A stretch of 14,225 bases of DNA, taken from positions 1-14,225 of IMG/VR virus record IMGVR_UViG_2778261499_000009; one strand, 5' to 3'. Origin of the DNA: a virus (lineage: Duplodnaviria > Heunggongvirae > Uroviricota > Caudoviricetes). A program made the position numbers and the translations under genes. Under the pieces are notes generated by a model. That model was not told where the DNA came from. It saw only the letters and a program-made list of their open reading frames with translations, and searched no databases. The stretch's first letter is position 1, and each line of letters opens with the position of its first letter. Positions 1 to 14,225 of the stretch are shown here, in pieces.

Positions 1-1248
1 ATGGCACTGAATATTCCATTCAGAAATGCGTACTATCGTTTTGCATCCAGTTACTCATTTCTCTTTTTTATTTCCTGGTCGCTGTGGTGGTCGTTATACG
101 CTATTTGGCTGAAAGGACATCTAGGATTAACAGGGACGGAATTAGGTACACTTTATTCGGTCAACCAGTTTACCAGCATTCTATTTATGATGTTCTACGG
201 CATCGTTCAGGATAAACTCGGTCTGAAGAAACCGCTCATCTGGTGTATGAGTTTCATTCTGGTCTTGACCGGACCGTTTATGATTTACGTTTATGAACCG
301 TTACTGCAAAGCAATTTTTCTGTAGGTCTAATTCTGGGGGCGCTCTTTTTTGGCCTGGGGTATCTGGCGGGATGCGGTTTGCTTGACAGCTTCACCGAAA
401 AAATGGCGCGAAATTTTCATTTCGAATATGGAACAGCGCGCGCCTGGGGATCTTTTGGCTATGCTATTGGCGCGTTCTTTGCTGGTATATTTTTTAGTAT
501 CAGTCCCCATATCAACTTCTGGTTGGTCTCGCTATTTGGCGCTGTATTTATGATGATCAACATGCGTTTTAAAGATAAGGATCACCAGTGCATAGCGGCG
601 GATGCGGGAGGGGTAAAAAAAGAGGATTTTATCGCAGTTTTCAAGGATCGAAACTTCTGGGTTTTTGTCATATTTATTGTGGGGACGTGGTCTTTCTATA
701 ACATTTTTGATCAACAACTCTTTCCTGTCTTTTATGCAGGTTTATTCGAATCACACGATGTAGGAACGCGCCTGTATGGTTATCTCAACTCATTCCAGGT
801 GGTACTCGAAGCGCTGTGCATGGCGATTATTCCTTTCTTTGTGAATCGGGTAGGGCCAAAAAATGCATTACTTATCGGTGTTGTGATTATGGCGTTGCGT
901 ATCCTTTCCTGCGTGCTGTTCGTTAACCCCTGGATTATTTCATTAGTGAAGCTGTTACATGCCATTGAGGTTCCACTTTGTGTCATATCCGTCTTCAAAT
1001 ACAGCGTGGCAAACTTTGATAAGCGCCTGTCGTCGACGATCTTTCTGATTGGTTTTCAAATTGCCAGTTCGCTTGGGATTGTGCTGCTTTCAACGCCGAC
1101 TGGGATACTCTTTGACCACGCAGGCTACCAGACAGTTTTCTTCGCAATTTCGGGTATTGTCTGCCTGATGTTGCTATTTGGCATTTTCTTCCTGAGTAAA
1201 AAACGCGAGCAAATAGTTATGGAAACGCCTGTACCTTCAGCAATATAG
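1..1248 (+). CDS. MFS transporter, LacY-like (oligosaccharide:H+ symporter family)
   Basis: 415-aa ORF, polytopic hydrophobic protein. Alignable by eye to E. coli LacY (e.g. DKLGLKKPLIW vs LacY DKLGLRKYLLW; NFHFEYGTARAWG vs NFEFGRARMFG; GPKNALLIG vs GGKNALLLAG). Not LacY itself. ATG at position 1, so the true start could lie upstream of the window. Confidence 0.8.
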   Translation: MALNIPFRNAYYRFASSYSFLFFISWSLWWSLYAIWLKGHLGLTGTELGTLYSVNQFTSILFMMFYGIVQDKLGLKKPLIWCMSFILVLTGPFMIYVYEPLLQSNFSVGLILGALFFGLGYLAGCGLLDSFTEKMARNFHFEYGTARAWGSFGYAIGAFFAGIFFSISPHINFWLVSLFGAVFMMINMRFKDKDHQCIAADAGGVKKEDFIAVFKDRNFWVFVIFIVGTWSFYNIFDQQLFPVFYAGLFESHDVGTRLYGYLNSFQVVLEALCMAIIPFFVNRVGPKNALLIGVVIMALRILSCVLFVNPWIISLVKLLHAIEVPLCVISVFKYSVANFDKRLSSTIFLIGFQIASSLGIVLLSTPTGILFDHAGYQTVFFAISGIVCLMLLFGIFFLSKKREQIVMETPVPSAI

Positions 1249-1327
1249 ACGTAAACTTTTTCCGGTTGTTGTCGATATCTCCATATCCCTCAACCGGAAA
1301 ATAATAATACAAAAATGCTTACCCCTG

Positions 1328-1597
1328 CTAATAATCACCTAATCCAAACGCCTCATTCATGTTCTGGTACAGTCGCTCAAATGTACTCCGGATACGCGGT
1401 TCGCTGATTTCCAGGACATTGTCGTCATTCAGCGACGTGTCCCGTGTATCACGGGCCTGCGAATTCATCAAGGAATGCATTGCAGAGTGAAGTATCGAGT
1501 CACGCCATATTTCGCTATCAGGATTCTGTATGATGGTTACATCGCCCGGCCAGGGCTGTTTAGTCATCAGCGCTTTCTGACAGTGCTGAGATTTCAA
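1328..1597 (-). CDS. hypothetical protein (weak call; possibly a remnant)
   Basis: 89-aa ORF between the transporter and the xis-like gene; no recognisable motifs. It sits where an integrase would be expected but is far too short and lacks tyrosine-recombinase motifs. Confidence 0.25.
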   Translation of the reverse strand: MKSQHCQKALMTKQPWPGDVTIIQNPDSEIWRDSILHSAMHSLMNSQARDTRDTSLNDDNVLEISEPRIRSTFERLYQNMNEAFGLGDY

Positions 1598-1776
1598 CCT
1601 GTTGCAGTAAAAATGAGTAGATATAGGGCAAGTGTGCTGCCAAACCCATCTTTTACGGGGTGAAGGTAGATTTGGTTTGAAGGGTATCTGGTGTCCCCTG
1701 CAGACATCTACTTCAAGCGGCAGGGGATTGATTGGAATGGTGTTTTTTAGATGTGAAAAATATTTTACCCGCTATT

Positions 1777-1977
1777 TTACCCATTGGCGCGGCTTAAGAG
1801 CTTATTTTTGAATTCACAATGGTCACGATATAACCATCTTGCTCGCCCGTGGATAACTTTGGCTTTTGGCAGGTCGCCGGACTTAATCCGGTCATAGATG
1901 AAGGTTTTACCGAAGCCAGTATCGGCCATGATGAATTTCAAATCAACCAGTGAATCAGGCTGTAGTTCGTGTTGCAT
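1777..1977 (-). CDS. AlpA/excisionase-like small DNA-binding protein (putative Xis)
   Basis: 66 aa; segment LKFIMADTGFGKTFIYDRIKSGDLPKAKVIHGRARW matches the AlpA/Xis-type winged-helix pattern (recalled family consensus). Confidence 0.55.
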   Translation of the reverse strand: MQHELQPDSLVDLKFIMADTGFGKTFIYDRIKSGDLPKAKVIHGRARWLYRDHCEFKNKLLSRANG

Positions 1978-2020
1978 GAGTGCTATCTCCGAATAGGGAA
2001 TCGAACCTGCAAATCAGGTA

Positions 2021-2043
2021 ATAAAAAACCGCCATCAGGCGGC
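2021..2043 (-). terminator. intrinsic terminator (minus strand) downstream of the 2086..2397 gene
   Basis: Minus-strand reading: stem CCGCC / loop TGAT / stem GGCGG followed by TTTTTTATT (plus strand shows AAAAAACCGCCATCAGGCGG). Confidence 0.5.
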
Positions 2044-2085
2044 TTGGTGTTCTTTCAGTTCTTCAATTCGAATATTGGTTACGTC

Positions 2086-2397
2086 TTATTCGATGCGCAC
2101 TCCTGGTATTTCGCCTTTTGATATTGCGAAGTCATAAATTTGCGCAGCACTATACCCATCTCGCATCCATGAATCTAATGCGCGAATAGCCTCGCTACGC
2201 TTTTTATCTTCTCTCTCATTTTTGATATCAACGAGGACATCAACGCAATTAAGGCAAATGTGGATTTTGTCCTTACATTCGATCATGGCGGCTTTACCAT
2301 GATTTCCGCCGCACAGTGAGCATAAATCTTCAGGGTCTGGCTGGTATTTCTGTAACGTTAGATGGTTGAATGTTGAACAGACCATAATCATCTCCAT
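2086..2397 (-). CDS. hypothetical Cys-rich small protein
   Basis: 103-aa ORF with CxxC-type motifs (CSLCGG ... CLNC). A hairpin lies 9 nt upstream of the annotated ATG, so the true start may be an internal Met (MIMVCS / MVCS). Confidence 0.4.
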   Translation of the reverse strand: MEMIMVCSTFNHLTLQKYQPDPEDLCSLCGGNHGKAAMIECKDKIHICLNCVDVLVDIKNEREDKKRSEAIRALDSWMRDGYSAAQIYDFAISKGEIPGVRIE

Positions 2398-2558
2398 AAA
2401 ACAAAACTCGCCGTAGCGAGTTCAGATAAAAGAAATCCCCGCGAGTGCGAGGATTGTTAGTTGCGCTCTGCTGCTGCCTTAGCCATTACCATATCCACCC
2501 AATTTCACCAGACATGATTCTCGCAATCACTATTATCACCAAAGTGATAATCACAACT

Positions 2559-3209
2559 TTAACTGGCGGCATCATTCACTCCCTGCGGCGGTTCTGGTAG
2601 CGGCATCCAGTGTGACGGTTTCCACGACGCACCAGGAATTATCCACCCATCATTAGCGTCAGGATGCCCGGGGATGTAAGTAGCCCATTTCATTCGCCAG
2701 TCACCTTTCCTGTCAAACTCCACGGCAACAAGTACGGCTGTTTTGGTATTCGGCATTCGCTCACTACAGCTTATCCAACCATCCGGAGTTACCGGAGAGT
2801 TGCCGGGTTCTTTAATGTGCAAACGAGGCTCACCATCTTTTGGTTCAGGCCACTGGCGCTCCATGTTGATCTTCAATTTATTTTCCATAGCAGCGGTAAT
2901 TTCAGCATCACTGATACCAGCACGGCGCTGTGCATCCCACAACAGGAACTGCATATCAGCCCACTCGCTGAGATCGTCAGGTTCGGCTGCGGCTTCCAGT
3001 GCCTCTTTTGAGAGGTGTTTCAGTGGACCAATGGGGCCAACGCAGCCAAATGTGGAGTCAGACCATTTGGCATGCTCGTGGCGAATCTGTTCGCGTTCCA
3101 GTGATGCCAGTGCAATTCGTGCCAGTTCCATTTGTTCGCCACGAGTAAGCCCGTTTTCAAGCGGATTTTTAATGAATAATTCGATACGTTCTTTGGTAAT
3201 AGTGGTCAT
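2559..3209 (-). CDS. DUF551-domain protein with N-terminal MazG-like (DUF550-type) region
   Basis: C-terminus DGWISCSERMP...VLVAVEF...SHWMPLPEPPQ matches the recalled DUF551 signature (WI..ER.P...VLV....HWMPLPEPP). The N-terminal half resembles prophage dATP/dGTP pyrophosphohydrolase-like domains (less certain). Confidence 0.5.
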   Translation of the reverse strand: MTTITKERIELFIKNPLENGLTRGEQMELARIALASLEREQIRHEHAKWSDSTFGCVGPIGPLKHLSKEALEAAAEPDDLSEWADMQFLLWDAQRRAGISDAEITAAMENKLKINMERQWPEPKDGEPRLHIKEPGNSPVTPDGWISCSERMPNTKTAVLVAVEFDRKGDWRMKWATYIPGHPDANDGWIIPGASWKPSHWMPLPEPPQGVNDAAS

Positions 3210-3211
3210 AG

Positions 3212-3403
3212 CTATTTCACCTTAATCTCAACATTTCGCAGCTTTAGCTCTACTGGCAGGTCTGACTTTCCTGTTAATGCTAATGCGAGATTTTCTGGGG
3301 TAATGAGAGCAGTTATTGCTTTCCCCATTGCCAGACGAATAATTATTCGTATTTCGCGATCGTCACATGCTCCTGGTCGAACGATTGATATTTGTCCGTC
3401 CAT
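3212..3403 (-). CDS. hypothetical small protein
   Basis: 63-aa ORF tightly packed between flanking genes (start 2 nt after the stop of the upstream gene); packing supports a real gene. Confidence 0.4.
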   Translation of the reverse strand: MDGQISIVRPGACDDREIRIIIRLAMGKAITALITPENLALALTGKSDLPVELKLRNVEIKVK

Positions 3404-3404
3404 C

Positions 3405-3812
3405 TCACTCTCCTTTGATGCGAATGCCTGCGGCGCGGATTGCAGCGATGACTTCAGAAACTTTGTATGCCATTACCGTTTGGTAATCATCGTGAAAATC
3501 TGTTCGATGAAGCATGCTGCTACGTTCCGGGAGCGATATTTCCCGCGCTTCCAGTTCTGCAATGCGCTTTTTTGCTGCTTCCAGTTCATCCAGTAATTCC
3601 AGCACGGTAGCCGGATTAGCCTTGGCAACAAAATCCCGGACTGGCTTACAATCAATCTCCGCAATGGGTTGATACGATGTGTAGCCATGCTGTCTTGTAT
3701 AACTACCGTGACGAATAACAAAAAAATCACCATTTATTTTTTTAGCCTGCCACTTATCTTCACCGGCTTTCTCTGCCGCTTCACGCAGTGCCTGATAGTC
3801 AATCTTGTTCAT
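3405..3812 (-). CDS. Ead/Ea22-like protein
   Basis: 135 aa; N-terminus MNKIDYQALREAAEKAG and PATVLELLDELEAAKKRIAELEAR resemble recalled Ead/Ea22-like lambdoid early-region proteins. Confidence 0.5.
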   Translation of the reverse strand: MNKIDYQALREAAEKAGEDKWQAKKINGDFFVIRHGSYTRQHGYTSYQPIAEIDCKPVRDFVAKANPATVLELLDELEAAKKRIAELEAREISLPERSSMLHRTDFHDDYQTVMAYKVSEVIAAIRAAGIRIKGE

Positions 3813-3813
3813 G

Positions 3814-4113
3814 TCACATCACCCTGAATCCGTTGCATTTACGTAAGAAATCGCAGATATAGCCCTTCATTTTTTCATGCCAATCTCGATCATTCCCATT
3901 GCACCAACCATCAGGTGGAGTCCAGTTTTCTATCAGAGCAGCCATTTTCTTTGCTTTCGCCGGAGTAGCTGTTGCGGTATCGCAGTAATGACGAGTTTCA
4001 ACCAACGCATCCATACCATCGATATCAAGTACGCAAAACCATGTGTGATTCGGCATTCCAACAGATGGTATTTGTTGCCCACGTCGACGTTTATCAATAA
4101 GACATACAGTCAT
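3814..4113 (-). CDS. hypothetical protein
   Basis: 99-aa ORF; its start overlaps the stop of the upstream gene (ATGA-type coupling at 4110-4113); several Cys/Trp residues. Confidence 0.45.
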   Translation of the reverse strand: MTVCLIDKRRRGQQIPSVGMPNHTWFCVLDIDGMDALVETRHYCDTATATPAKAKKMAALIENWTPPDGWCNGNDRDWHEKMKGYICDFLRKCNGFRVM

Positions 4114-4655
4114 GGTTCCACCTTCTCTATTTGCTTAAGACCGTCTCTCACTGCATTAAGTACGCGTTCCAGATACTGGTATTTCTGGTTTGGTGCCGTT
4201 GGCCAGTCGGCATACCATGGATCATCACCAAAGAGATTCAGCAGTTTGTTACCGACGCCGAAACAACAGCAGCTTTCTTTTACGTCATCGGCGTTTTCCG
4301 CCTCGTCCCACATTTCGCGAGCCTGTACCGCGTCGATTTCTCTCTCTCTTCGTAATTTTATGATTTCTGACTTCACGAAAAGCAGATTTGCATCGTTGTC
4401 ATCGTCGACCGTGCTTCGCAGTTGAGGGTCGAAATAGCCGATTAGATACTCGTTGCTGACCCGCTTAATGAACGTCTGCACATCATCACCGCCCATAGCA
4501 AACCAAGCCGCAGTCCACGCTTTTCCGTAGCAGGTGATGGTGATTCTTCCCTTACCAGGTTCGTAGTTTTCAATCATCACTCGAACCGGATCTAGTCGCT
4601 CTGCACCGGTTATAACGAATGACAACACATCAATCTTTTCAACCGTTACACTCAC
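4110..4655 (-). CDS. hypothetical protein (start refined to GTG with strong SD)
   Basis: The track ORF runs to 4676, but an AAGGAGG Shine-Dalgarno (plus 4662-4668) sits 6 nt upstream of an in-frame GTG at 4653-4655, which is the likelier start. Acidic central region. Confidence 0.5.
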
Positions 4656-4835
4656 TGGTTGCCTCCTTTGCGCCACATCGCATTCAGATATTTGTTGTCA
4701 TTAACAGAACCGAAACTATTTCTCTTAAGCAATTCCTCTCTCGATGGCATTGGCTTTACGCGTTGGCGAATAATCATTTCTGCCGGAAGAATGCCGGGAT
4801 TGTATGCAAGTCCTCTCATGGTAAATTCCTCTTTG

Positions 4836-5150
4836 TTAATTTATTCGTATGCCTGCTCTTTCTTCATCGAGTTTTTTTAGCTTGTATCGCATAGCTCTCA
4901 CTGAATAAATTGAGCGGCAGGTTGCAATTGCTATTTCTTCTGCGGAGAACTTACCGAAAAGTGATACTTCAGCTCTTGTCCATCGTCTTCCACGAAGTCG
5001 GCTAACAATGTCAGCGCCAATCCTTGTTGCTTTCGCCATAACTGCTTTTTCAGTCCTTTCCAGTTTTTCAGCGATAACTTCAACTGGCATTGTCGCCGCT
5101 ACTTCGCGCAAGAAATCGACTTCCCATTTCTCCCATGGAGTCTTTTTCAT
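4836..5150 (-). CDS. hypothetical protein
   Basis: 104-aa ORF with an internally duplicated W..E(V)..F/L motif ([13 protein letters not shown] / [13 protein letters not shown]), possibly a tandem helix-turn-helix-like fold. Confidence 0.45.
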
Positions 5151-5161
5151 AGGCGATACCG

Positions 5162-5650
5162 TTATTTGATAAGAAGTGAAGGTTTCCCAACTTTGAGTTG
5201 AGCGCCGGGGATATTTATTCCTGCTTTTAGTTGGTGTTTGATTGCCAGTTTGTCGGCTTTTATTGTTGTTTCAAACTCAACGTATTCAGGAGGAAGGGCG
5301 CTTGAGTCGATGATTTCTACAGTTTCTGACGGTTTGCGGATTGTTACCTGGTGAATACCTGCTCGAATCTTTTTCTTGCCAACCATTTCAAGCGATGACG
5401 CTATATACGCCATAATGCTGTCAATCTTATTTTGAATTACTGCGGCTCGCTCATTCAGTGACTTTGCCTCTTCCTTGAGGCGTTCAGCATAACCAGATTC
5501 ATTTTTAATAATGGCAAGAAGTTGCTCTATTTTATCGGTAAATTCTCCTTCCATGCCTTCTATTGTGTCAGCAATCATCTCTGGTTCTAAATCTGAATCC
5601 ATCAATTTTGCGTATTCATTGGCAATTTCATACAGTTTGCTCACTGGCAA
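5162..5650 (-). CDS. Siphovirus Gp157-family protein
   Basis: 162 aa; LYEIANEYAKLMDSD...TIEGMEGEFTDK...IKNESGYAERLKEEAKSLNER...KPSETVEIID...LKAGINIPGAQL fits the recalled Gp157-family pattern; lies immediately downstream of the RecT-family gene. Confidence 0.5.
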   Translation of the reverse strand: MPVSKLYEIANEYAKLMDSDLEPEMIADTIEGMEGEFTDKIEQLLAIIKNESGYAERLKEEAKSLNERAAVIQNKIDSIMAYIASSLEMVGKKKIRAGIHQVTIRKPSETVEIIDSSALPPEYVEFETTIKADKLAIKHQLKAGINIPGAQLKVGKPSLLIK

Positions 5651-6539
5651 CCTCCAGTTTCGCTTTGCATTCTGCGTAAATGGCTTGTACGTTCTGCTGC
5701 AATTTCATTCCAGATGTCAGGCGATATGCTTCTGCAAAATATCGCTTCAAATCATCCATGTTTTCTGCCTGAGCCATTTCATCGCAAAGAAGTTGTGCTT
5801 TATCCATTATTTCCTGCTGGCGTTTCCGTTCATCTTCGCGGATATCTTCCTCTGATTTGTGCGGCATAACTGGTTCAGTCCACACACCTTCTTCTTCGTT
5901 TAGTACGTGAATAGCACTATCAAGACGTGATGCCTTAGGCCAATACTTGCTTGCACGCTTTACGACCGTCTTTCGCGCCATCTCATTCCAGTGATTTACC
6001 CATGGTCCTTTATCGCTGAATGCTGCCTTGCTTGTTTTCCTTACAGCCTCAATTTCAGCCAGACTCATCTCTTCCGTTAGATAATCACCTGCTGGCGTCT
6101 TAACTGTGCAGTAAACGCCAACGATATCACCACGATCACCGAAGGCGTTGTATTTATGGGTTGGTGCTTTATCAAGCCCGTTTGACTCATAGGTATCGTT
6201 AGCATGAACAAGTTTTGCCTGACCCCATGAGATAACACCAGACTCCATTGCAATATGGAGCAATCCCATATAGCTGATATCAAGGCAAACCATGCCGTCT
6301 CGCGGAACTAGATAAGCAAGTTTGCTGGCCGGGTTTAAGGTGATGCCGATCGCCGCAACATTGATGATGGCGTTCTGTGCGCTGGTTGGGTTTGCCAGTG
6401 CTGTTTTAGCCAGGTAATCATTTTTCTGGAAATACTGAATTGCAAACTGGCTTTCCTTAGCCCATGTCACCGTCTGTTCAGTCAATGCTCCGCAGAATAA
6501 CTGCTCCTGCTGTTTAACGAATTCAACGATATTGCTCAT
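5628..6539 (-). CDS. recT: RecT-family single-strand annealing protein
   Basis: 303 aa; GPWVNHWNEMARKTVVKRASKYWP closely matches the recalled conserved RecT segment GPWVTHWEEMAKKTAIRRLFKYLP; start overlaps the stop of the upstream gene (ATGA). Confidence 0.75.
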   Translation of the reverse strand: MSNIVEFVKQQEQLFCGALTEQTVTWAKESQFAIQYFQKNDYLAKTALANPTSAQNAIINVAAIGITLNPASKLAYLVPRDGMVCLDISYMGLLHIAMESGVISWGQAKLVHANDTYESNGLDKAPTHKYNAFGDRGDIVGVYCTVKTPAGDYLTEEMSLAEIEAVRKTSKAAFSDKGPWVNHWNEMARKTVVKRASKYWPKASRLDSAIHVLNEEEGVWTEPVMPHKSEEDIREDERKRQQEIMDKAQLLCDEMAQAENMDDLKRYFAEAYRLTSGMKLQQNVQAIYAECKAKLEVASEQTV

Positions 6540-6847
6540 GCTGCTTCTCCATAAATGTGTCTGCGTTTGAATATTGCGAAGGCATATTCAGCCTTAACTC
6601 TTTCGGTTATTGCATCCCAGAACCATTCAGCGGCTTTTTCCTGATAGTTACAGTCATCATCTTCCAGCCAGTCGATAGCGTCCTTAGTGTGTTCATCTGG
6701 TTTATATGAGCGAAGCATTTCGCTTATTGGGTCGCAACGTTTGCAGAGACGATCAACTTCACTGTTGATTCGTTCGTAATCTTCATCAGTAAAACTTGCG
6801 ATTATTTGCGATATTTCACGCTTATCATTCAGAGTCAGAATCATCAT
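6536..6847 (-). CDS. hypothetical protein translationally coupled to recT
   Basis: 103-aa ORF; its stop overlaps the recT start; acidic, Trp-rich C-terminal half. Confidence 0.5.
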   Translation of the reverse strand: MMILTLNDKREISQIIASFTDEDYERINSEVDRLCKRCDPISEMLRSYKPDEHTKDAIDWLEDDDCNYQEKAAEWFWDAITERVKAEYAFAIFKRRHIYGEAA

Positions 6848-7065
6848 CTTTCTCCTGTTCTTTGTGCTGATTGAGCATTTTGTTCATCTGACGAATGAAT
6901 TCTTCGTCTGACCAGTTATCTGTAAAACTCATTTCCTGCGATACCACGGAAGGTTGATAGCTGATTTCATCGCTTTATTTGCTTCAAGCCACATTTTTGA
7001 ATCACCAATAAATCGGGCTATTACTGCTTTGTTCTGTGCAGCACGAAGCATCTGGTGATTAATGG

Positions 7066-7200
7066 CTATTTCATTGCGCATAACGCCTCCAGTTGTTTCT
7101 TTGCTGCTCTGATTAATTGTTTAACTCGGCGTGATAATTCAGATTCGTGCGGGTAGAAAGCGGACATGACGCCGCTACCCGCGAGCTGAAAGTGCATCAT
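7066..7200 (-). CDS. cIII: cIII-like peptide (putative FtsH inhibitor)
   Basis: The track ORF starts at 7251, but AAGGAG (minus strand) lies 6 nt upstream of the internal ATG at 7198-7200. The resulting 44-aa peptide MMHFQLAGSGVMSAFYPHESELSRRVKQLIRAAKKQLEAL parallels lambda cIII MQYAIAGWPVAGCPSESLLERITRKLRDGWKRLIDIL (recalled). Confidence 0.45.
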   Translation of the reverse strand: MMHFQLAGSGVMSAFYPHESELSRRVKQLIRAAKKQLEALCAMK

Positions 7201-7275
7201 GGGTAACTCCTTATATTTGATTGCATAACGAAAATGCCTCTCGTGAAGCATTATTGGTATGCGGTAAAGCCGCGC

Positions 7276-7644
7276 TCAGGCGGCTTTGATAGTCATATCA
7301 TCTGAATCAAATATTCCAGATGTGTCGATATCGGTAATTCTTATTCCTTCGCTACCATCCATTGGAGGCCATCCTTCCTGACCATTTCCATCATTCCAGT
7401 CGAACTCACACACAACACCATATGCATTTAAGTCGCTTGAAATTGCTATAAGCAGAGCATGTTGCGCCAGCATGATTAATACAGCATTTAATACAGAGCC
7501 GTGTTTATTGAGTCGGTATTCAGAGTCTGACCAGAAATTATTAATCTGGTGAAGTTTTTCCTCTGTCATTACGTCATGGTCGATTTCAATTTCTATTGAT
7601 GCTTTCCAGTCGTAATCAATGATGTATTTTTTGATGTTTGACAC
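7276..7644 (-). CDS. hypothetical acidic protein (early-left operon)
   Basis: 122-aa ORF with GTG start (AGGA about 9 nt upstream); strongly acidic (many D/E, C-terminus ...ITDIDTSGIFDSDDMTIKAA); occupies the ral/ea10-like position. Confidence 0.5.
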   Translation of the reverse strand: MSNIKKYIIDYDWKASIEIEIDHDVMTEEKLHQINNFWSDSEYRLNKHGSVLNAVLIMLAQHALLIAISSDLNAYGVVCEFDWNDGNGQEGWPPMDGSEGIRITDIDTSGIFDSDDMTIKAA

Positions 7645-7662
7645 CTATTCATATCCTCATAG

Positions 7663-7690
7663 ATAAAAAATCGCCCTCACACTGGAGGGC
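7663..7690 (-). terminator. intrinsic terminator in the pL operon (tL-like)
   Basis: Minus-strand reading: stem GCCCTC / loop CAGTGT / stem GAGGGC followed by GATTTTTTAT. Confidence 0.55.
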
Positions 7691-7813
7691 AAAGAAGATT
7701 TCCAATAATCAGAACAAGTCGGCTCCTGTTTAGTTACGAGCGACATTGCTCCGTGTATTCACTCGTTGGAATAAATACACAGTGCAGTGTTTATTAGTAT
7801 GCCTGTCTTTTAA

Positions 7814-8711
<898 letters not shown>

Positions 8712-8869
8712 CTGGATTCTCTTGTCAGTTAGCTTTGGTGGTGTGTGTGAGTCGTAGTCCTGAACGAAAACACCCCACGATTGGCTCATTTGCAGCTAAT
8801 CCGGATTCGCACTTCCGGCCAATGCTTCGTTTCGTATCACACACCCCAAAGCCTTCTGCTTTGAATGCT

Positions 8870-8900
8870 GCCCTTCTTCAGGGCTTAATTTTTAAGAGCA
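8870..8900 (-). promoter_or_regulatory. nutL (boxA + boxB)
   Basis: Minus-strand reading TGCTCTTAA-AAATTAA-GCCCTGAAGAAGGGC; boxB is a perfect hairpin identical to recalled lambda nutL boxB; boxA as CGCTCTTAA in my recollection of lambda. Confidence 0.8.
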
Positions 8901-8939
8901 TCACCTTCATGTGGGTTAGTGCGTCCTGCTGGTGTGTTT

Positions 8940-8968
8940 AGTATCACCGCTAGTGGTATTTGTGTCAA
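8940..8968 (-). promoter_or_regulatory. pL promoter
   Basis: Minus strand -35 TTGACA (plus 8963-8968), 17-nt spacer, -10 GATACT (plus 8940-8945); overlaps oL1/oL2 as in lambda. Confidence 0.75.
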
Positions 8969-9002
8969 CACCGCCAGAGATAATTTATCACCGCAGATGG
9001 TT
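8942..9002. promoter_or_regulatory. oL1-oL2-oL3 cI operator sites
   Basis: TATCACCGCTAGTGGTA (8942-8958), CAACACCGCCAGAGATA (8966-8982), TATCACCGCAGATGGTT (8986-9002); match recalled lambda oL sites, with one difference in oL1. Confidence 0.85.
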
Positions 9003-9157
9003 ATCTGTATGTTTTTTATATAGATTTATTTTTTGCAGGGTTGTGTGGCTTGGGAGGTGATCGAGAGATCAGAATTGCGTTGTTTAGTGAGTTGCACCTA
9101 TTAATTTTAAAATAAATACAATTGGTTATGTGTTTTTAGGTGGGGCGATCGTGAGGC

Positions 9158-9183
9158 AAAGAAAACCCGGCTCGGTGGCCGGG
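9158..9183 (-). terminator. intrinsic terminator ending the cI-region leftward transcript (timm-like)
   Basis: Minus-strand reading: stem CCCGGC / loop CACCGA / stem GCCGGG followed by TTTTCTTT, starting 10 nt after the stop of the 9193..10050 gene. Confidence 0.6.
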
Positions 9184-9192
9184 TTGATGGGA

Positions 9193-10050
9193 TTATCGTT
9201 TATTTCTTTGATGTTTCTTTGCAGACTCAGCTTGAGTGTTTCCATACCTGCGTTTACCGCTATTGTTTTTTCCCCTAGGCTTGCCTTTTTTTCGATCTTC
9301 CCACCAGTCAGGTGCCGGGTCTGGCTCAACATGTAAAGCATCGGCAAGTCCTGATATCAAGCTGTATGACTGAACTCCATCAATGTGCTCTGACAGTGAT
9401 GGGGTAACATTCTGTCTTAGTGGATCAAGAATAAAATCAATACCTTTAATTCTGGCGTGTTTGGCGGCAGGCACAAAGTCTGAGTCCCCAGCAACAAGGA
9501 CAATTACATCAACAAGTTTTTCATAAGCTAAAGTCGTGATATCCATCCCTAGCTTGATATCAACTTGTTTTTGTTTGATGTCATAGTAAAAATCATCATT
9601 TGTCAGTTCATCCCATTTTTTCGTTCCTTTCATCAGAGCATCAAGGGAGAATGTAGTTAGTTGCCATCGCTTATTATCAACAAGATTCCCTAATCTTAAG
9701 GCTGTTTTTCGAGTTTTTCTTAACTCTTCATGCAGCTCCGTTCTCAGAATATATGATTTTTCGAGTTTGAAATTCTTGCGACCAGGCGTCTTATTGCCAG
9801 GCTCAGGAAGTGGAAGGCGTGTTTGAATGTCGAGTGGTGGACAGTCATAGAAGTAAATTCTATAAAGCTCAAGCGGTTCCCTACGTTCTTGTGATTGACG
9901 TTTTCCATTAAGATGGGAAAGAACCATTGACCATATTACTTTCATTATGCATTGCGCAGTCAGTTCATGCTCGGCGAAGTGTTTACGATGCGTAGCATGA
10001 ACACGCTGCATGAAAAAACCCGCATCAATTAAAATTGCTGCTTTCTTCAT
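9193..10050 (-). CDS. NYN/LabA-like (PIN-fold) nuclease-domain protein with Lys/Arg-rich C-terminal tail, in the rexAB position
   Basis: 285 aa; N-terminal MKKAAILIDAGFF and downstream VDVIVLVAGDSDFVPAAKHARIKGIDFI match recalled NYN/LabA hallmark motifs; tail RKKGKPRGKNNSGKRRYGNTQAESAKKHQRNKR is highly basic. Lies between cI and the timm-like terminator, where lambda carries rexA-rexB. No resemblance to RexA or RexB. Confidence 0.65.
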   Translation of the reverse strand: MKKAAILIDAGFFMQRVHATHRKHFAEHELTAQCIMKVIWSMVLSHLNGKRQSQERREPLELYRIYFYDCPPLDIQTRLPLPEPGNKTPGRKNFKLEKSYILRTELHEELRKTRKTALRLGNLVDNKRWQLTTFSLDALMKGTKKWDELTNDDFYYDIKQKQVDIKLGMDITTLAYEKLVDVIVLVAGDSDFVPAAKHARIKGIDFILDPLRQNVTPSLSEHIDGVQSYSLISGLADALHVEPDPAPDWWEDRKKGKPRGKNNSGKRRYGNTQAESAKKHQRNKR

Positions 10051-10060
10051 AAGAGTCCCA

Positions 10061-10120
10061 AAAAAATAGCCCAGAGCCGTTATGCAGATATTAACAATTG
10101 TCTGCGAACGGGGCTGGGCT
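10061..10120 (-). terminator. large imperfect hairpin followed by a U-run, immediately upstream of the NYN gene start (terminator/attenuator-like)
   Basis: Outer stem AGCCCAGAGCCGTT (10068-10081) pairs with AACGGGGCTGGGCT (10107-10120) at 12 of 14 positions; inner stem GCAGA/TCTGC; on the minus strand it is followed by ATTTTTTT and then the ATG 13 nt later. Confidence 0.4.
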
Positions 10121-10130
10121 TGGTTTAATT

Positions 10131-10159
10131 AATCTATGCCAAGTTGACTGTGCCGTCAA
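10131..10159 (-). promoter_or_regulatory. candidate sigma70 promoter reading toward the NYN gene, embedded in a GTTGAC-N6-GTCAAC palindrome
   Basis: Minus strand TTGACG, 17-nt spacer, TAGATT; perfect inverted repeat GTTGAC TGTGCC GTCAAC at 10143-10160. Confidence 0.35.
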
Positions 10160-10177
10160 CATAAAACTTACTTCCTA

Positions 10178-10894
<717 letters not shown>

Positions 10895-10901
10895 TTAAAT
10901 C

Positions 10902-10967
10902 TATCACCGCAAGGGATAAATATCTAACACCGTGCGTGTTGACTATTTTACCTCTGGCGGTGATAAT
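10902..10967. promoter_or_regulatory. oR3-oR2-oR1 with pRM and pR
   Basis: TATCACCGCAAGGGATA (10902-10918), TAACACCGTGCGTGTTG (10925-10941), TACCTCTGGCGGTGATA (10949-10965); pR -35 TTGACT (10939-10944) and -10 GATAAT (10962-10967); SD TAAGGAGG before cro. Confidence 0.9.
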
Positions 10968-10982
10968 AGTTGCATGTACTAA

Positions 10983-11192
<210 letters not shown>

Positions 11193-11199
11193 ATAACCC

Positions 11200-11231
11200 C
11201 GCTCTTACACATTCCAGCCCTGAAAAAGGGC
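11200..11231 (+). promoter_or_regulatory. nutR (boxA CGCTCTTAC, boxB GCCCTGAAAAAGGGC)
   Basis: boxA at 11200-11208; boxB perfect hairpin at 11217-11231; matches recalled lambda nutR. Confidence 0.8.
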
Positions 11232-11255
11232 ATCAAATTAAACCACACCTATGGT

Positions 11256-11290
11256 GTATGCATTTATTTGCATACATTCAATCAATTGTT
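11256..11290 (+). terminator. tR1-like terminator region between cro and cII
   Basis: Hairpin GTATGCA / loop TTTATT / TGCATAC (11256-11275) followed by an AT-rich tract; position equivalent to lambda tR1 (Rho-dependent in lambda). Confidence 0.5.
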
Positions 11291-11300
11291 ATCTAAGGAA

Positions 11301-11333
11301 ATACTTACATATGGTTCGTGCAAACAAACGCAA
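11301..11333 (-). promoter_or_regulatory. pRE with cII-binding TTGC-N6-TTGC repeat
   Basis: Minus strand TTGCGTTTGTTTGC (plus 11320-11333) overlapping the cII start; -10-like AAGTAT (plus 11301-11306). Confidence 0.6.
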
Positions 11334-11607
11334 CGAGGCTCTACGAATCGAGAGTGCGTTGCTTAACAAAATCGCAATGCTTGGAACTGAGAAGACAGCG
11401 GAAGCTGTGGGAGTTGATAAGTCGCAGATCAGCAGGTGGAAGAGGGACTGGATTCCAAAGTTCTCAATGCTGCTTGCTGTTCTTGAGTGGGGTGTCGTCG
11501 ACGACGACATGGCTCGATTGGCACGACAAGTTGCTTCGATTCTCACCAATAAAAAACGCCCGGTGTGCAAGACCGAGCGTTCTGATCAAATACAAATGGA
11601 ATTTTAA
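11311..11607 (+). CDS. cII: cII transcriptional activator (lambda type)
   Basis: From the ATG at 11311 (SD TAAGGAA upstream): MVRANKRNEALRIESALLNKIAMLGTEKTAEAVGVDKSQISRWKRDWIPKFSMLLAVLEWGVVDDDMARLARQV... matches recalled lambda cII; the C-terminal few residues differ. The track ORF begins 60 nt upstream. Confidence 0.95.
   Translation: MVRANKRNEALRIESALLNKIAMLGTEKTAEAVGVDKSQISRWKRDWIPKFSMLLAVLEWGVVDDDMARLARQVASILTNKKRPVCKTERSDQIQMEF
11548..11579 (-). terminator. oop-like antisense terminator overlapping the cII 3' end
   Basis: Minus-strand reading: stem CGCTCGG / 9-nt loop / CCGGGCG (one mismatch) followed by TTTTTTATT; position as for lambda oop RNA. Partner promoter not identified. Confidence 0.35.
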
Positions 11608-11629
11608 CAACATCCAACGAGGTAATTAT

Positions 11630-11902
11630 ATGCGAAACAAAGGCTTTAATCCACCTGATACACACAAAGAAGCTAAGCGTTTGCGCTTCCTTCGTTCCAT
11701 TGATGAAAGAACTCAAATCTCTTTTGTGAAAGTTGCCAGAACTGAGCTTCTGAAGGCTGAGGCGAGGGCGTTGCTCCCGTCTCTACCAAAAGAGGAGGGA
11801 TATACGTTCATTCCAAACGCATTTCTGGAAAAGCTTCTCAAAGAAGACATATCCGTAAGTCAGTTTAACGATGTTCTTAAGGTCTTTCGTCAAGGCAGGT
11901 AG
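11630..11902 (+). CDS. hypothetical protein inserted between cII and the replication initiator
   Basis: 90 aa from the ATG at 11630 with GAGG 9 nt upstream (MRNKGFNPPDTHKEAKRLRFL...); the longer track ORF (11318) overlaps cII out of frame and is not credible; the stop is followed 2 nt later by the next start. Confidence 0.55.
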   Translation: MRNKGFNPPDTHKEAKRLRFLRSIDERTQISFVKVARTELLKAEARALLPSLPKEEGYTFIPNAFLEKLLKEDISVSQFNDVLKVFRQGR

Positions 11903-11904
11903 TT

Positions 11905-12852
11905 ATGAGCAATACAGCAAAAATCTACGATTTCAGCGCCGCACACGAGCGCAGGAGCAACAGGATGGAGAACCAGAAAACTGGTTACATTCCGTTGTAC
12001 CGGAGCATTCTGAAACAGTCATGGGCGAAAGATGTTTATCTTCGCACCCTGTGGGAAAACCTTCTCCTGAATGCCGCCAGAAAGCCATACAAAGCGAATT
12101 TCAAAGGTCATGAATGGCATCTGCAACCCGGTCAACTGGTTGTGACAGCAGCTGATTTAGGTCTTCAGTTATGCGACAGACATGGCAAGCCAGCAAGCCG
12201 TGATCAGGTTGAGCGGATGCTTCAGGTTTTTGTGAAAGAGGGGATGATCTCCATTGATGGAGAGAAGCAAAAAGGTCGTGTGATAACCATCACAAATTAC
12301 CATGAATATGCTCAAAAAATGGACAATTTACCCGCACATGAAGCCGCACAAACAACCGCACATGATGCAGCACATGACGAAGACAGTAATGGCGCGGCTT
12401 TCAGAGCACATGCCGCACATGAAAGCGCACATGAAGCCGCACAAACAACCGCACATCATGAACAAGAAGGTATTAACAAGAATATAAATAATACCCCCCT
12501 ACCCCCCAATGGGGGAGGCGATGGGCAGGTTAAACCTGAACGTCGCAAGGCAGAACGAATCGACTACGAATCCTTCCTGAACGCCTACAACACCGAAGTC
12601 GGTGACAGACTTCCACACGCTGTTGCGGTCAACGAGAAACGAAAACGCCGCCTGAAGAAAATCATCCCGCAACTGAAAACGCCAAACGTGGACGGTTTCA
12701 GAGCGTATGTCAGGGCGTTTGTGCATCAGGCCAAGCCGTTTTACTTCGGAGACAACGACACGGGCTGGACAGCTGATTTTGATTACCTGCTGAGGGAAGA
12801 TTCGTTAACTGGAGTACGGGAAGGGAAGTTTGCAGACAGGGGGATTGCATGA
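11905..12852 (+). CDS. phage replication initiator (O-like / P22 gene 18-like) containing the origin
   Basis: 315 aa; N-terminus [10 protein letters not shown] resembles lambda O MTNTAKILNF; position immediately before the helicase; a central low-complexity AHE/AHD-repeat linker is encoded by the iteron DNA; stop overlaps the helicase start (ATGA). Confidence 0.7.
12330..12520. repeat. ori-type iteron cluster + AT-rich tract + C5/G5 palindrome inside the initiator gene
   Basis: GCACATG-containing units recur at least six times; an exact 30-bp direct repeat CGCACATGAAGCCGCACAAACAACCGCACAT occurs at 12333-12362 and 12427-12456; followed by AT-rich GGTATTAACAAGAATATAAATAATAC and CCCCCCTACCCCCCAATGGGGGAGG. 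Confidence 0.65.
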
Positions 12853-14225
12853 GACAGGATATCGAAGCGAGCGTTATCGGTGGCCTGCTGATTGGTGGAT
12901 TAACACCAACCGCCAGCGACGTTCTGGCAACGCTGGAGCCGGAAGCGTTTTCAATTCCGCTCTACCGGAAAGCCTTCGAGGTTATCCGCAAGCAGGCGAG
13001 AAACAGAAACCTAATCGATGCGCTGATGGTTGCCGAGGCGTGCGGAGAGGAGCATTTCACGTCAATCCTGATGACCAGCAAAAACTGCCCGAGTGCCGCA
13101 AACCTGAAGGGATATGCCGGAATGGTCGCGGATAACTATCACCGCCGTCTGGTGCTGGAAATCATGGATGAAATGCGTGAACCAATTCAGAGCGGAACCA
13201 TCGACGCATCGAGTCAGGCGATGGATGAGCTTGTAAAGCGTCTTTCAGCCATCAGAAAGCCCCGTGACGAGGTTAAACCGGTACGGTTAGGGGAAATCAT
13301 CACCGACTACACTGACACGCTTGACAGGCGTCTGAGGAACGGAGAAGAGTCAGATACCCTGAAGACCGGAATCGAAGAACTTGATGCCATCACCGGAGGG
13401 ATGAACGCGGAAGACCTGGTGATAATCGCTGCTCGTCCTGGTATGGGGAAAACCGAACTGGCGCTGAAGATTGCCGAAGGCGTTGCAAGCCGCGTTATTC
13501 CTGGTTCTGACGTCCGGCGCGGAGTGTTGATTTTCTCGATGGAAATGAGCGCATTGCAGATCGCAGAGCGAAGCATTGCCAACGCCGGGAGGATGTCGGT
13601 TAGCGTACTGCGAAATCCTGCATCGATGGATGACGAGGGCTGGGCACGTGTTGCTAACGGAATGAGTCAGCTTGCAGATTTGGATGTATGGGTGGTCGAT
13701 GCCTCGCGGTTATCGGTCGAAGAAATACGCTCAATCGCAGAACGGCACAAACAGGAAAATCCAAACCTGTCACTCATCATGGCGGATTATCTTGGCCTGA
13801 TTGAGAAGCCGAAAGCAGACCGCAACGACCTCGCAATTGCTCACATCTCAGGAAGCCTTAAGGCGATGGCGAAAGACCTGAAAACTCCAGTTATCTCCCT
13901 GAGTCAGCTTTCACGCGATGTTGAGAAGCGACCAAACAAACGCCCGACAAACGCAGATTTGCGTGATTCAGGAAGCATTGAACAGGACGCAGACTCAATC
14001 ATCATGCTCTATCGGGAAGCGGTATATGACGAGAACAGTAGCGCCGCGCCATTTGCTGAAATCATCGTGACGAAAAACCGTTTTGGCTCACTTGGTACGG
14101 TTTACCAGCGGTTCTGTAACGGACACTTTGTTGCATGTGACCAGGATGAAGCCAGACAGATTTGCACAGCATCAAATGCACCCGCTGCACGTGGCAGACG
14201 ATATGCACAAGGGGCTGACGTATGA
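12849..14225 (+). CDS. DnaB-family replicative helicase (P22 gene 12-like)
   Basis: 458 aa; Walker [17 protein letters not shown]; DnaB-like C-terminal RecA-fold motifs ([19 protein letters not shown]); SD AGGGGG 5 nt upstream; stop codon is the last 3 nt of the window. Confidence 0.9.

Follow-up and report, generated by a model that had tools for sequence, protein, structure and literature searches.

Genes of the early-left recombination cassette

We analysed a stretch of 14,225 nucleotides (nt) of viral DNA (IMG/VR record IMGVR_UViG_2778261499_000009, positions 1 to 14,225; hereafter, the window). It carries a lambdoid prophage whose N, cI, cro and cII genes are of the lambda type and which also encodes an O-like replication protein and a DnaB-type helicase. 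Our subject is the recombination cassette of its early-left operon, and above all three adjoining genes that encode a small acidic protein (here called p102), a RecT-family annealase and a Gp157-family protein. An earlier reading of the window, made from the sequence only, had described these three genes as a module at 5162–6847. All three open reading frames (ORFs) were present at those coordinates on the minus strand, but the module proved to be wider, spanning approximately 4836–6932; a 35-amino-acid ORF coupled to kil (orf35) and a gene of the Mu gp9/P22 Abc1 family had been missed. The cassette contains the following genes, given in their order on the minus strand together with one domain of RecT.

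6825–6932, minus strand: orf35, a 35-amino-acid acidic ORF (phrog_17766, E = 5e-16), annotated in phage Kapi1
6536–6844, minus strand: p102, a 102-amino-acid acidic protein (103 amino acids if begun at 6847), all-helical by prediction, in the gam slot; candidate host-nuclease inhibitor (phrog_3486)
5628–6539, minus strand: RecT-family single-strand annealing protein, SAP-4 type of Zheng et al. 2025 (PF03837, E = 3.7e-32; phrog_148, E = 2.9e-92; TIGR00616)
5631–5864, minus strand: C-terminal domain of RecT (residues 226–303), specific to Gp157-partnered RecTs by identity comparison
5162–5644, minus strand: Sipho_Gp157-family protein, in the exonuclease slot (PF05565, E = 1e-36; phrog_253, E = 2e-53)
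4836–5150, minus strand: 104-amino-acid basic protein (isoelectric point, pI, of 10) with two helix-turn-helix-like repeats (phrog_323, E = 2.8e-20)

The three central genes had been described as linked by overlapping stop and start signals, and we saw such overlaps at both junctions. The TGA stop of the small ORF overlaps the ATG of RecT as ATGA (GCAGCATGAGC), and the RecT stop (5628–5630) falls within the Gp157 ORF. Two of the starts had to be revised. An overlap of about 23 nt between Gp157 and RecT presupposes a TTG start at 5650; the GTG at 5644 was preferred because GGAGG lies 6 nt upstream, RefSeq uses this start and the N-termini of homologues agree with it (all 160-amino-acid Gp157 homologues begin M-S/T-K-L-Y), and the overlap then becomes 17 nt. 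The small protein was acidic as described (pI 4.65; 24 D+E, 15 K+R), but its length is likelier to be 102 than 103 amino acids, because the spacing to AGGAG and the N-termini of its family agree with the second ATG (6844) rather than the first (6847).

The cassette lies between kil and a DUF2737 gene, in an operon whose other landmarks are as follows.

8940–8968, minus strand: pL-like promoter, TTGACA-17-GATACT (10 of 12 matches in a consensus scan), between the lambda-type cI and N genes
7066–7251, minus strand: cIII (PF08134, E = 4.6e-30)
6929–7081, minus strand: kil, a host division inhibitor, directly upstream of the module as in lambda (PF06301, E = 1.7e-20; labelled kil in RefSeq)
4652–4819, minus strand: DUF2737 gene, a homologue of P22 orf56 and the distal border of the exchangeable Rec cassette (PF10930, E = 1.5e-30)

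The pL-like promoter is predicted from its sequence to drive the early-left operon that holds the module. No terminator-like sites were found on the minus strand from 7233 to 4000, which is consistent with a single pL-driven transcription unit. The ATG of orf35 overlaps the kil stop as ATGA, and its 3' end overlaps the 102-amino-acid gene by 20 nt. This small ORF was kept in nearly all of 80 viral contigs; it has an annotation in Kapi1 and none in the RefSeq record of the window's prophage. In many P22-like Salmonella phages whose cassette is erf-abc1-abc2 instead, the DNA of this ORF was about 89% identical. We rejected orf35 as a homologue of P22 Arf, the resemblance being limited to 12 residues (SDEEFI) and the two proteins belonging to different PHROGs. 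At the other border, the DUF2737 protein was 75% identical to P22 orf56, which comes after abc2 in P22. Chi sites were uninformative in the window (0 counted, approximately 0.4 expected).

No exonuclease gene, whether of the YqaJ/lambda Exo or the RecE/DUF3799 kind, was found next to the annealase, the place where sister modules have YqaJ or DUF3799. Scans of the early-left ORFs against Pfam, PHROGs and NCBIfam detected no nuclease family in any of them, in agreement with what had been read from the sequence. In contrast, the claim that a pairing of RecT with Gp157 is unusual did not survive our searches. Phages HK140, mEpX1, Gally, Kapi1 and others were 97–98% identical to the window over a 1.85-kb region. 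A coverage of 80% or more of this region was reached in 13 phage records and in 265 of 5426 complete E. coli genomes. The block was also present in at least 80 IMG/VR contigs: nearly all of the 80 with a near-identical Gp157 hold orf35, the 102-amino-acid gene, RecT, Gp157, the 104-amino-acid gene and DUF2737. Further afield, Gp157 homologues of 60–85% identity were common in Citrobacter, Klebsiella, Serratia, Cronobacter and Salmonella, and a tblastn search found the family in 591 phage records, including approximately 100 Vibrio phages and several Pseudomonas phages. The Serratia and Cronobacter modules preserved the gene order despite amino-acid divergence. Within the near-identical modules of the IMG/VR contigs (L027–L106), RecT fell into two allele classes, at least 90% or about 87% identical to the window RecT, which suggests recombination within the module.

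The module has also been described in the literature. Among the 246 lambdoid Rec modules surveyed by Zheng, Casjens, Davidson, Amundsen & Smith (Genome Res 2025; PMC12315714), 84 had no nuclease; the authors name HK140 as the example of an SAP-4 annealase, with no phage nuclease, no SSB and an anti-RecBCD protein of the ‘MuGam’ type. The HK140/mEpX1-type module is the same as that of the window (98% nucleotide identity over 99% of the region). It has the same gene order and is likewise without exonuclease or SSB, and nothing substantive differs in sequence. A RecT–Gp157 module without an exonuclease is already known, and it is ordinary as it was first framed. What is new here is the evidence that places the 102-amino-acid gene in the gam slot, the co-variation of the RecT C-terminal domain, and the extension of the module to the Mu gp9/P22 Abc1-family gene. 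In its main text, the survey neither gives a function to the 102-amino-acid gene that precedes the annealase nor takes up any co-variation involving the C-terminal domain of RecT (PMC12315714).

RecT and its partner gene

Profile searches bore out the assignments of both RecT and Gp157. For RecT, the scores were 111.9 bits against PF03837 (cut-off 24) and 82.4 bits against TIGR00616 (cut-off 52.65). The protein was 59% identical to phi80 Rec over residues 4–219, and it gave a weak but collinear sequence match to the solved RecT structure 7UB2 (E = 0.0044, residues 34–208). On these similarities, the window protein is a RecT-family annealase. Gp157 matched PF05565 at 126.8 bits (cut-off 28.6) over model positions 1–162 of 162, and all 32 aligned homologues matched the same family. 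A tblastn comparison with orf157 of Streptococcus thermophilus phage Sfi19 gave 28.9% identity over 94% of the query (E = 3e-9). Judged by its profile matches, the window protein is a member of the Gp157 family.

We compared RecTs that precede different partner genes, and found that the C-terminal domain co-varies with the gene downstream. The RecTs that precede Gp157, from the window, Serratia, Cronobacter and a further locus (L190), had C-terminal domains that were 50–78% identical to each other. Those that precede a lambda-type Exo, from phi80, ENT47670, Midgardsormr38 and a distant example in locus L021, shared another conserved C-terminal domain, which was only 17–19% identical to that of the window. 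The N-terminal annealase domains were homologous across both groups (48–83% identical); in phi80, whose module has the order gamL-rec-exo, it is the N-terminal domain of Rec that is 59% identical to the window RecT. The C-terminal domain of Red-beta binds lambda Exo. By analogy, we infer that the C-terminal domain of the window RecT docks Gp157. The domain could instead bind host SSB or something else, and this would count against a RecT–Gp157 partnership.

The role of Gp157 itself is less clear from comparison. The label of phrog_253 is ‘Mu Gam-like end protection’, and the protein did give a collinear match over nearly the whole of the Phage_Mu_Gam model (PF07352), at 16.6 bits and E = 0.008, below the cut-off of 28.3. 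The AlphaFold2 (AF2) model has one long helix (residues 21–88) followed by a small beta-rich domain, with a predicted local distance difference test (pLDDT) score of 79. Several results did not bear out a kinship with Mu Gam. Only 4 of 32 Gp157 homologues matched PF07352 at E ≤ 1. Compared by hhalign with a 23-sequence Mu Gam profile, Gp157 scored 17.3 (E = 0.067), a value reached by 17 of 200 column shuffles; the probability was 1–2% with the profile and with a single sequence alike. The aligned C-terminal motifs (RxPS..V, K.AI and PG...K.G) are plausible by eye, but the alignment score did not exceed that of the shuffles. The monomer model had a predicted template modelling score (pTM) of 0.43 and was dominated by the single long helix. 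A Foldseek search of this model against the PDB returned neither Mu Gam nor Ku, and nothing below E = 0.6, and none of the top 50 BFVD matches was named Mu Gam. The BFVD matches were to other Gp157-like proteins and, weakly, to PD-(D/E)XK or YqaJ-like exonucleases (300–400 amino acids, E 0.03–2). Sequence searches of the PDB gave coiled-coil noise only, PADLOC gave nothing, and the NCBIfam search gave only a Rad50 coiled-coil match, far below threshold. We concluded that homology of Gp157 to Mu Gam is not established by the present tests. The Pfam comment on the family mentions an effect on the phage sensitivity of the host; a literature search found no experimental studies of Gp157 function.

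The same protein family occurs beside annealases in phages of Firmicutes, where gp157-like and Mu-gam-like genes share a slot next to erf or sak4 and were read by Steczkiewicz et al. 2021 as analogous in function (PMC8093625); DUF1351 and DUF2483 genes are also found beside these annealases. The arrangement differs from that of the window: gp157 lies upstream of Erf or Sak4 there, usually with an SSB, whereas the window gene lies downstream of RecT and no SSB is present. RecT in Firmicutes phages is normally paired with a YqaJ or DUF3799 exonuclease (PMC8093625).

Downstream of Gp157, the 104-amino-acid basic protein matched the PHROG (phrog_323) that is also matched by Mu gp9 (5.2e-29) and by P22 Abc1 (1.3e-23). 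Its similarity to gp9 was direct, with an hhalign probability of 93.7% against a Mu gp9 profile (E = 1.9e-7) and a BLASTP match to Mu gp9 itself (E = 5e-5), and on this sequence evidence it is a homologue of Mu gp9. The link to Abc1 consists of the shared phrog_323 only, and the two proteins match partly different regions of that profile. BLASTP gave no alignment to P22 Abc1, hhalign gave E = 0.12, and no direct similarity to P22 Abc2 was found. Accordingly, we did not adopt the Abc1-like annotation of this gene in phage Gally, which rests on shared PHROG membership without direct similarity to Abc1. No NCBIfam or PADLOC match was found for the protein. The gene lies downstream of Gp157 in nearly all of the 80 contigs, and genes resembling the family come after Gp157 in the Serratia and Cronobacter loci. 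In Mu-like phages gp9 directly precedes gam at 51 of 80 loci, and it does so in Mu itself. The gp9 homologue of the window likewise adjoins a gene that carries a Gam label, namely Gp157, although the gene order in Mu is reversed relative to the window; Mu is not known to have an annealase. A gp9/Abc1-like gene also occurs in Salmonella phage SEN22 (L005), and between it and an ExoVIII-type nuclease lies a gene (3614–4183) for a 189-amino-acid protein of phrog_11517 with no Pfam family. This protein, at the expected place of the annealase, may be an unrecognised annealase type.

The small acidic protein in the gam slot

The sequence-only reading had remarked in passing that the small upstream protein could have a Gam-like role. 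The evidence for this is indirect, and comes from its slot, its interchange with GamL, its size and charge and its predicted fold; matches to Gam or GamL profiles did not bear it out. The p102 gene has cIII and kil immediately ahead of it and the annealase gene immediately behind it, an arrangement shared by gam in lambda and gamL in phi80. Lambda Gam and phi80 GamL block host nuclease. No Pfam or NCBIfam family matched p102, and the PHROG that did match, phrog_3486, carries no functional label. An exhaustive search gave a family of approximately 48 cluster representatives, nearly all of 100–105 amino acids.

Members of this family occupy the first position of more than one kind of recombination module. 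In nine further informative contexts the p102-family gene is the first gene, abutting either RecT-YqaJ/Exo or a DUF3799 (RecE-like) nuclease with RecT. Four of the nine are in phages (Salmonella phage SEN22, Cronobacter phage ENT47670 and Erwinia phages Midgardsormr38 and phiEt88), and the other five are in contigs, metagenomic or genomic, whose members reach down to 27% identity; a tenth contig was too short to show the neighbouring gene. In SEN22, nucleotide similarity to the window ends exactly at the stop codon of the p102-family gene, and the p102 gene therefore travels independently of the recombinase behind it. In the RecT–Gp157 modules of Serratia and Cronobacter, the upstream gene was again of the p102 family (hmmsearch E 1e-34 to 1e-42). 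L190 has a third RecT–Gp157 module, and there a bona fide GamL occupies the p102 slot (PF28165; E = 6e-54 with our own GamL hidden Markov model, HMM). This locus has the same RecT–Gp157 pair and the same type of RecT C-terminal domain as the window, and the survey assigns a GamL-RecT-Gp157 module to phage HK639 (PMC12315714). GamL precedes RecT-Exo in phi80. That is, all four combinations of GamL or the p102 family with Exo or Gp157 occur.

The properties of p102 also resemble those of Gam. The p102 family had a median pI of 4.65 and a net charge of −9, compared with 4.80 and −10 for lambda Gam and 4.56 and −7 for GamL. An AF2 model built on 33 diverse members was predicted with good confidence (pLDDT 90.6, pTM 0.77) and contains five helices. 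In a blind Foldseek search of this model against the PDB, lambda GamS (2uv1, 2uuz, 5mbv) ranked top by probability and by template modelling (TM) score, although the E-values of 2–9 were not significant. GamS chains made up 5 of the 30 matches; 4 of them had TM-scores of 0.53–0.69, and the three closest had a root-mean-square deviation of 2.6–2.7 Å. The only similarity in sequence between the p102 and Gam families lay over 25 collinear columns, with a DDDxx[FY]QE stretch, for which hhalign gave E = 0.0012 and a probability of 19–20%. None of 300 column shuffles reached this score (z approximately 5.8), and the register was consistent in unfiltered HMMER output (11–13 bits).

Other results count against a place for p102 among the known Gam-type inhibitors. 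To the insignificant Foldseek E-values must be added the low hhalign probabilities for p102 (10–20%). The Pfam Gam model (PF06064) matched 0 of 33 p102-family members in a Pfam scan at E ≤ 10, which gave scattered noise only. NCBIfam had no match for p102, while phi80 GamL matched NF033500 at 4e-44. Gam and GamL align with each other, at a probability of 90–91%, through an N-terminal motif (MNAYxxxDRIExxxW) that the p102 family does not have. The score of p102 against a seven-sequence GamL profile was 15, lower than the 20.5 obtained against the single phi80 sequence, and because the profile score fell below the single-sequence score we do not claim p102 as a GamL homologue. Among the module proteins compared, our GamL HMM matched the L190 protein only. 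GamL of phi80 and L190 belongs to a different sequence family from p102, which has neither a GamL model match nor the N-terminal motif. A PDB sequence search with p102 gave only coiled-coil noise, and PADLOC gave nothing. Multi-stretch phmmer matches of p102 to long saposin-repeat proteins (P0159 and P0182, with at least five repeats each) were set aside as probably due to chance amplified by the repeats.

We concluded that p102 is a gam-slot protein that, according to its structural model, probably has a Gam-like fold, and that it is not a demonstrated member of the Gam or GamL families. A host-nuclease inhibitor is our best single guess for its function, held at a little under even odds. In the p102 family the N-terminus is split into two helices, so that RecBCD or SbcCD may be engaged differently than by Gam, whose N-terminal helix differs.

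Proposed mechanism, alternatives and significance

The cassette can be placed among the known systems of lambdoid phages. Lambda Red (kil-gam-bet-exo) sits at the corresponding point of the pL operon, immediately behind cIII and kil, and shows the same order of a small acidic helical protein, an annealase and a partner gene, with overlapping stops and starts throughout. It differs in having a Beta-type annealase where the window has a RecT-type one, and a 5'–3' exonuclease in third place where the window has Gp157; the first gene of the window's module is only marginally similar in sequence to Gam. The P22 cassette (arf-erf-abc1-abc2) has the same borders, kil and orf56/DUF2737. It is likewise without a nuclease and dependent on handling RecBCD, and a phrog_323 gene is found in both. 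Its annealase is Erf, however, and no Abc2 homologue is present in the window.

We consider it moderately probable (about 60%) that the window carries an HK140/mEpX1-type Rec module in an N-antiterminated pL operon, working in the following way. RecT would anneal the single strands that arise at replication forks or that host enzymes expose by resecting ends, and its annealing would support recombination-dependent concatemer formation and mosaic exchange. Because no phage exonuclease is encoded, the module would rely on controlling the host nucleases rather than supplying its own. The position of Gp157 in the Exo slot and the dedicated C-terminal domain of RecT make Gp157 most likely the physical partner of RecT at double-strand ends. 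Gp157 may act as a dimeric coiled-coil protein that binds and protects ends, organising or guarding them rather than resecting them; the literature gives it this role under the name ‘MuGam type’. The most likely task of p102 is to bind a host nuclease (RecBCD and/or SbcCD) and block it, like lambda Gam and phi80 GamL, and the basic gp9/Abc1-like protein may serve as an accessory DNA-binding factor. A sharper form of this proposal combines two of its parts: p102 would be a third, so far unrecognised sequence type of Gam-fold inhibitor, and Gp157 would be a dedicated partner that docks the special C-terminal domain of RecT and replaces the exonuclease. We hold this combination tentatively, and think it slightly more apt to be wrong than right.

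For p102, the chief alternative is an accessory function other than inhibition: it might assist the annealase or exonuclease as an Arf-like cofactor, regulate kil or cIII, or be directed against another host target such as SSB. We regard this as a substantial possibility, though not the favoured one. It would account for the lack of HMM-level matches to Gam or GamL, for the insignificant E-values of the GamS structural matches, and for the absence of the N-terminal motif; in the GamS–RecBCD structure, this motif lies in the helix that enters the DNA channel of RecBCD. P22, moreover, has a small acidic cofactor gene, arf, at the same position before erf. On the other hand, p102 had no match to the Arf PHROG (phrog_2445), it agrees with Gam in size, charge and predicted fold, and GamL takes its slot in L190. 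The family also precedes either RecT or an ExoVIII-type nuclease, with the SEN22 mosaic junction at its stop codon, and p102 is therefore not tied to a single recombinase partner.

The published classification raises a different alternative, in which Gp157 is a free-standing end binder of the Mu Gam/Ku type that blocks RecBCD by itself, has no specific link to RecT and provides the only anti-RecBCD function of the module. The MuGam type is the role given to Gp157 in the survey of Zheng et al. 2025 (PMC12315714), in line with the PHROG label. The sub-threshold collinear match to PF07352 fits this role, as does the Mu gp9 homologue that adjoins Gp157 just as gp9 adjoins gam in Mu. The model of Gp157 is a coiled-coil with a beta domain, an architecture that resembles that of Mu Gam. 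We nevertheless judge a free-standing end binder rather unlikely. The profile comparison with Mu Gam was not above chance and the Gp157 model had no structural match to Gam or Ku; the change of the RecT C-terminal domain with Gp157 versus Exo suggests a specific partnership; and a gam-slot gene, whether p102 or GamL, is also present, so that Gp157 need not be the RecBCD blocker. Much less probable again is that Gp157 resects the ends itself, as a cryptic nuclease, or a domain derived from one, that has diverged strongly, and so gives the module an exonuclease partner. This would suit its place in the Exo slot after RecT, the weak BFVD matches to PD-(D/E)XK or YqaJ-like phage exonucleases (E 0.03–2) and the beta-beta-beta-alpha-beta order of its C-terminal secondary structure. 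But those Foldseek matches are weak and the model is of moderate confidence, no nuclease family was found for Gp157 in Pfam, PHROGs, NCBIfam or PDB sequence searches, and its invariant residues include no recognisable D...(D/E)xK motif. Least probable of all, by a small step, is that the block is a decaying RecT-Exo remnant in a defective prophage, without current function. The window does lack an integrase gene between the bacterial flank and xis, and several neighbouring genes are marked as pseudogenes in RefSeq. All ORFs of the block are intact and coupled, however; the plaque-forming phages HK140, mEpX1, Kapi1 and Gally carry the same block at 97–98% identity, and it was kept across genera (Serratia, Cronobacter) with the same gene order despite amino-acid divergence.

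Several features of the surrounding prophage deserve mention. The window differed at only 2 bases in total from the chromosome record of E. coli APEC O2-211 (NZ_CP006834.2), at 8748 and 8825, positions that lie in the 5' part of the N frame (133 amino acids, 8388–8789) or just upstream. The prophage adjoins the sucrose-utilisation locus of the host chromosome. Between the bacterial sucrose-transporter gene and a xis/TorI-like gene (1248–1977) there is no integrase gene and only a DUF4942 fragment (1328–1597); the prophage appears truncated or rearranged at its left end. At 2559–3209 on the minus strand, an intact 216-amino-acid EaA-like fusion joins dATP/dGTP pyrophosphohydrolase and DUF551 domains; its N-terminal part is 59% identical to P22 EaA, and RefSeq shows several pseudogene fragments here. 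A 167-amino-acid ORF on the opposite strand (7892–8395, plus strand) sits at the sieB position between N and an ea10-like gene, and no Pfam or PADLOC family was found for it. Between cI and N, where lambda has rexAB, a gene at 9193–10050 on the minus strand encodes a 285-amino-acid NYN-domain protein (PF01936, E = 6.8e-9; weak PADLOC matches to NYN and HEC-09), which may be a prophage-encoded defence or moron gene. Its ORF is intact in the window, and RefSeq divides the same gene into a coding sequence and a pseudogene.

The side remark on a Gam-like small protein turned out to be the most interesting part of the original observation. If it is true that the p102 family inhibits RecBCD or SbcCD, it would be a new type of inhibitor, relevant to recombineering toolkits, and it would bear on which phages trigger the defence systems that guard RecBCD (retron Ec48, Gabija). 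The p102 type would then be the gam-slot gene of many Enterobacterales phage modules, of the RecT-Exo, RecE-RecT and RecT-Gp157 kinds, that are currently scored as having no anti-RecBCD gene, or only one, and the bookkeeping of phages said to have none would change. If Gp157 replaces the exonuclease as the partner of RecT, the module would define a nuclease-free route to recombination at double-strand ends. Gp157 occurs in hundreds of phages of Gram-positive and Gram-negative hosts, and the co-variation of the RecT C-terminal domain with its partner gene offers a testable handle on its role.

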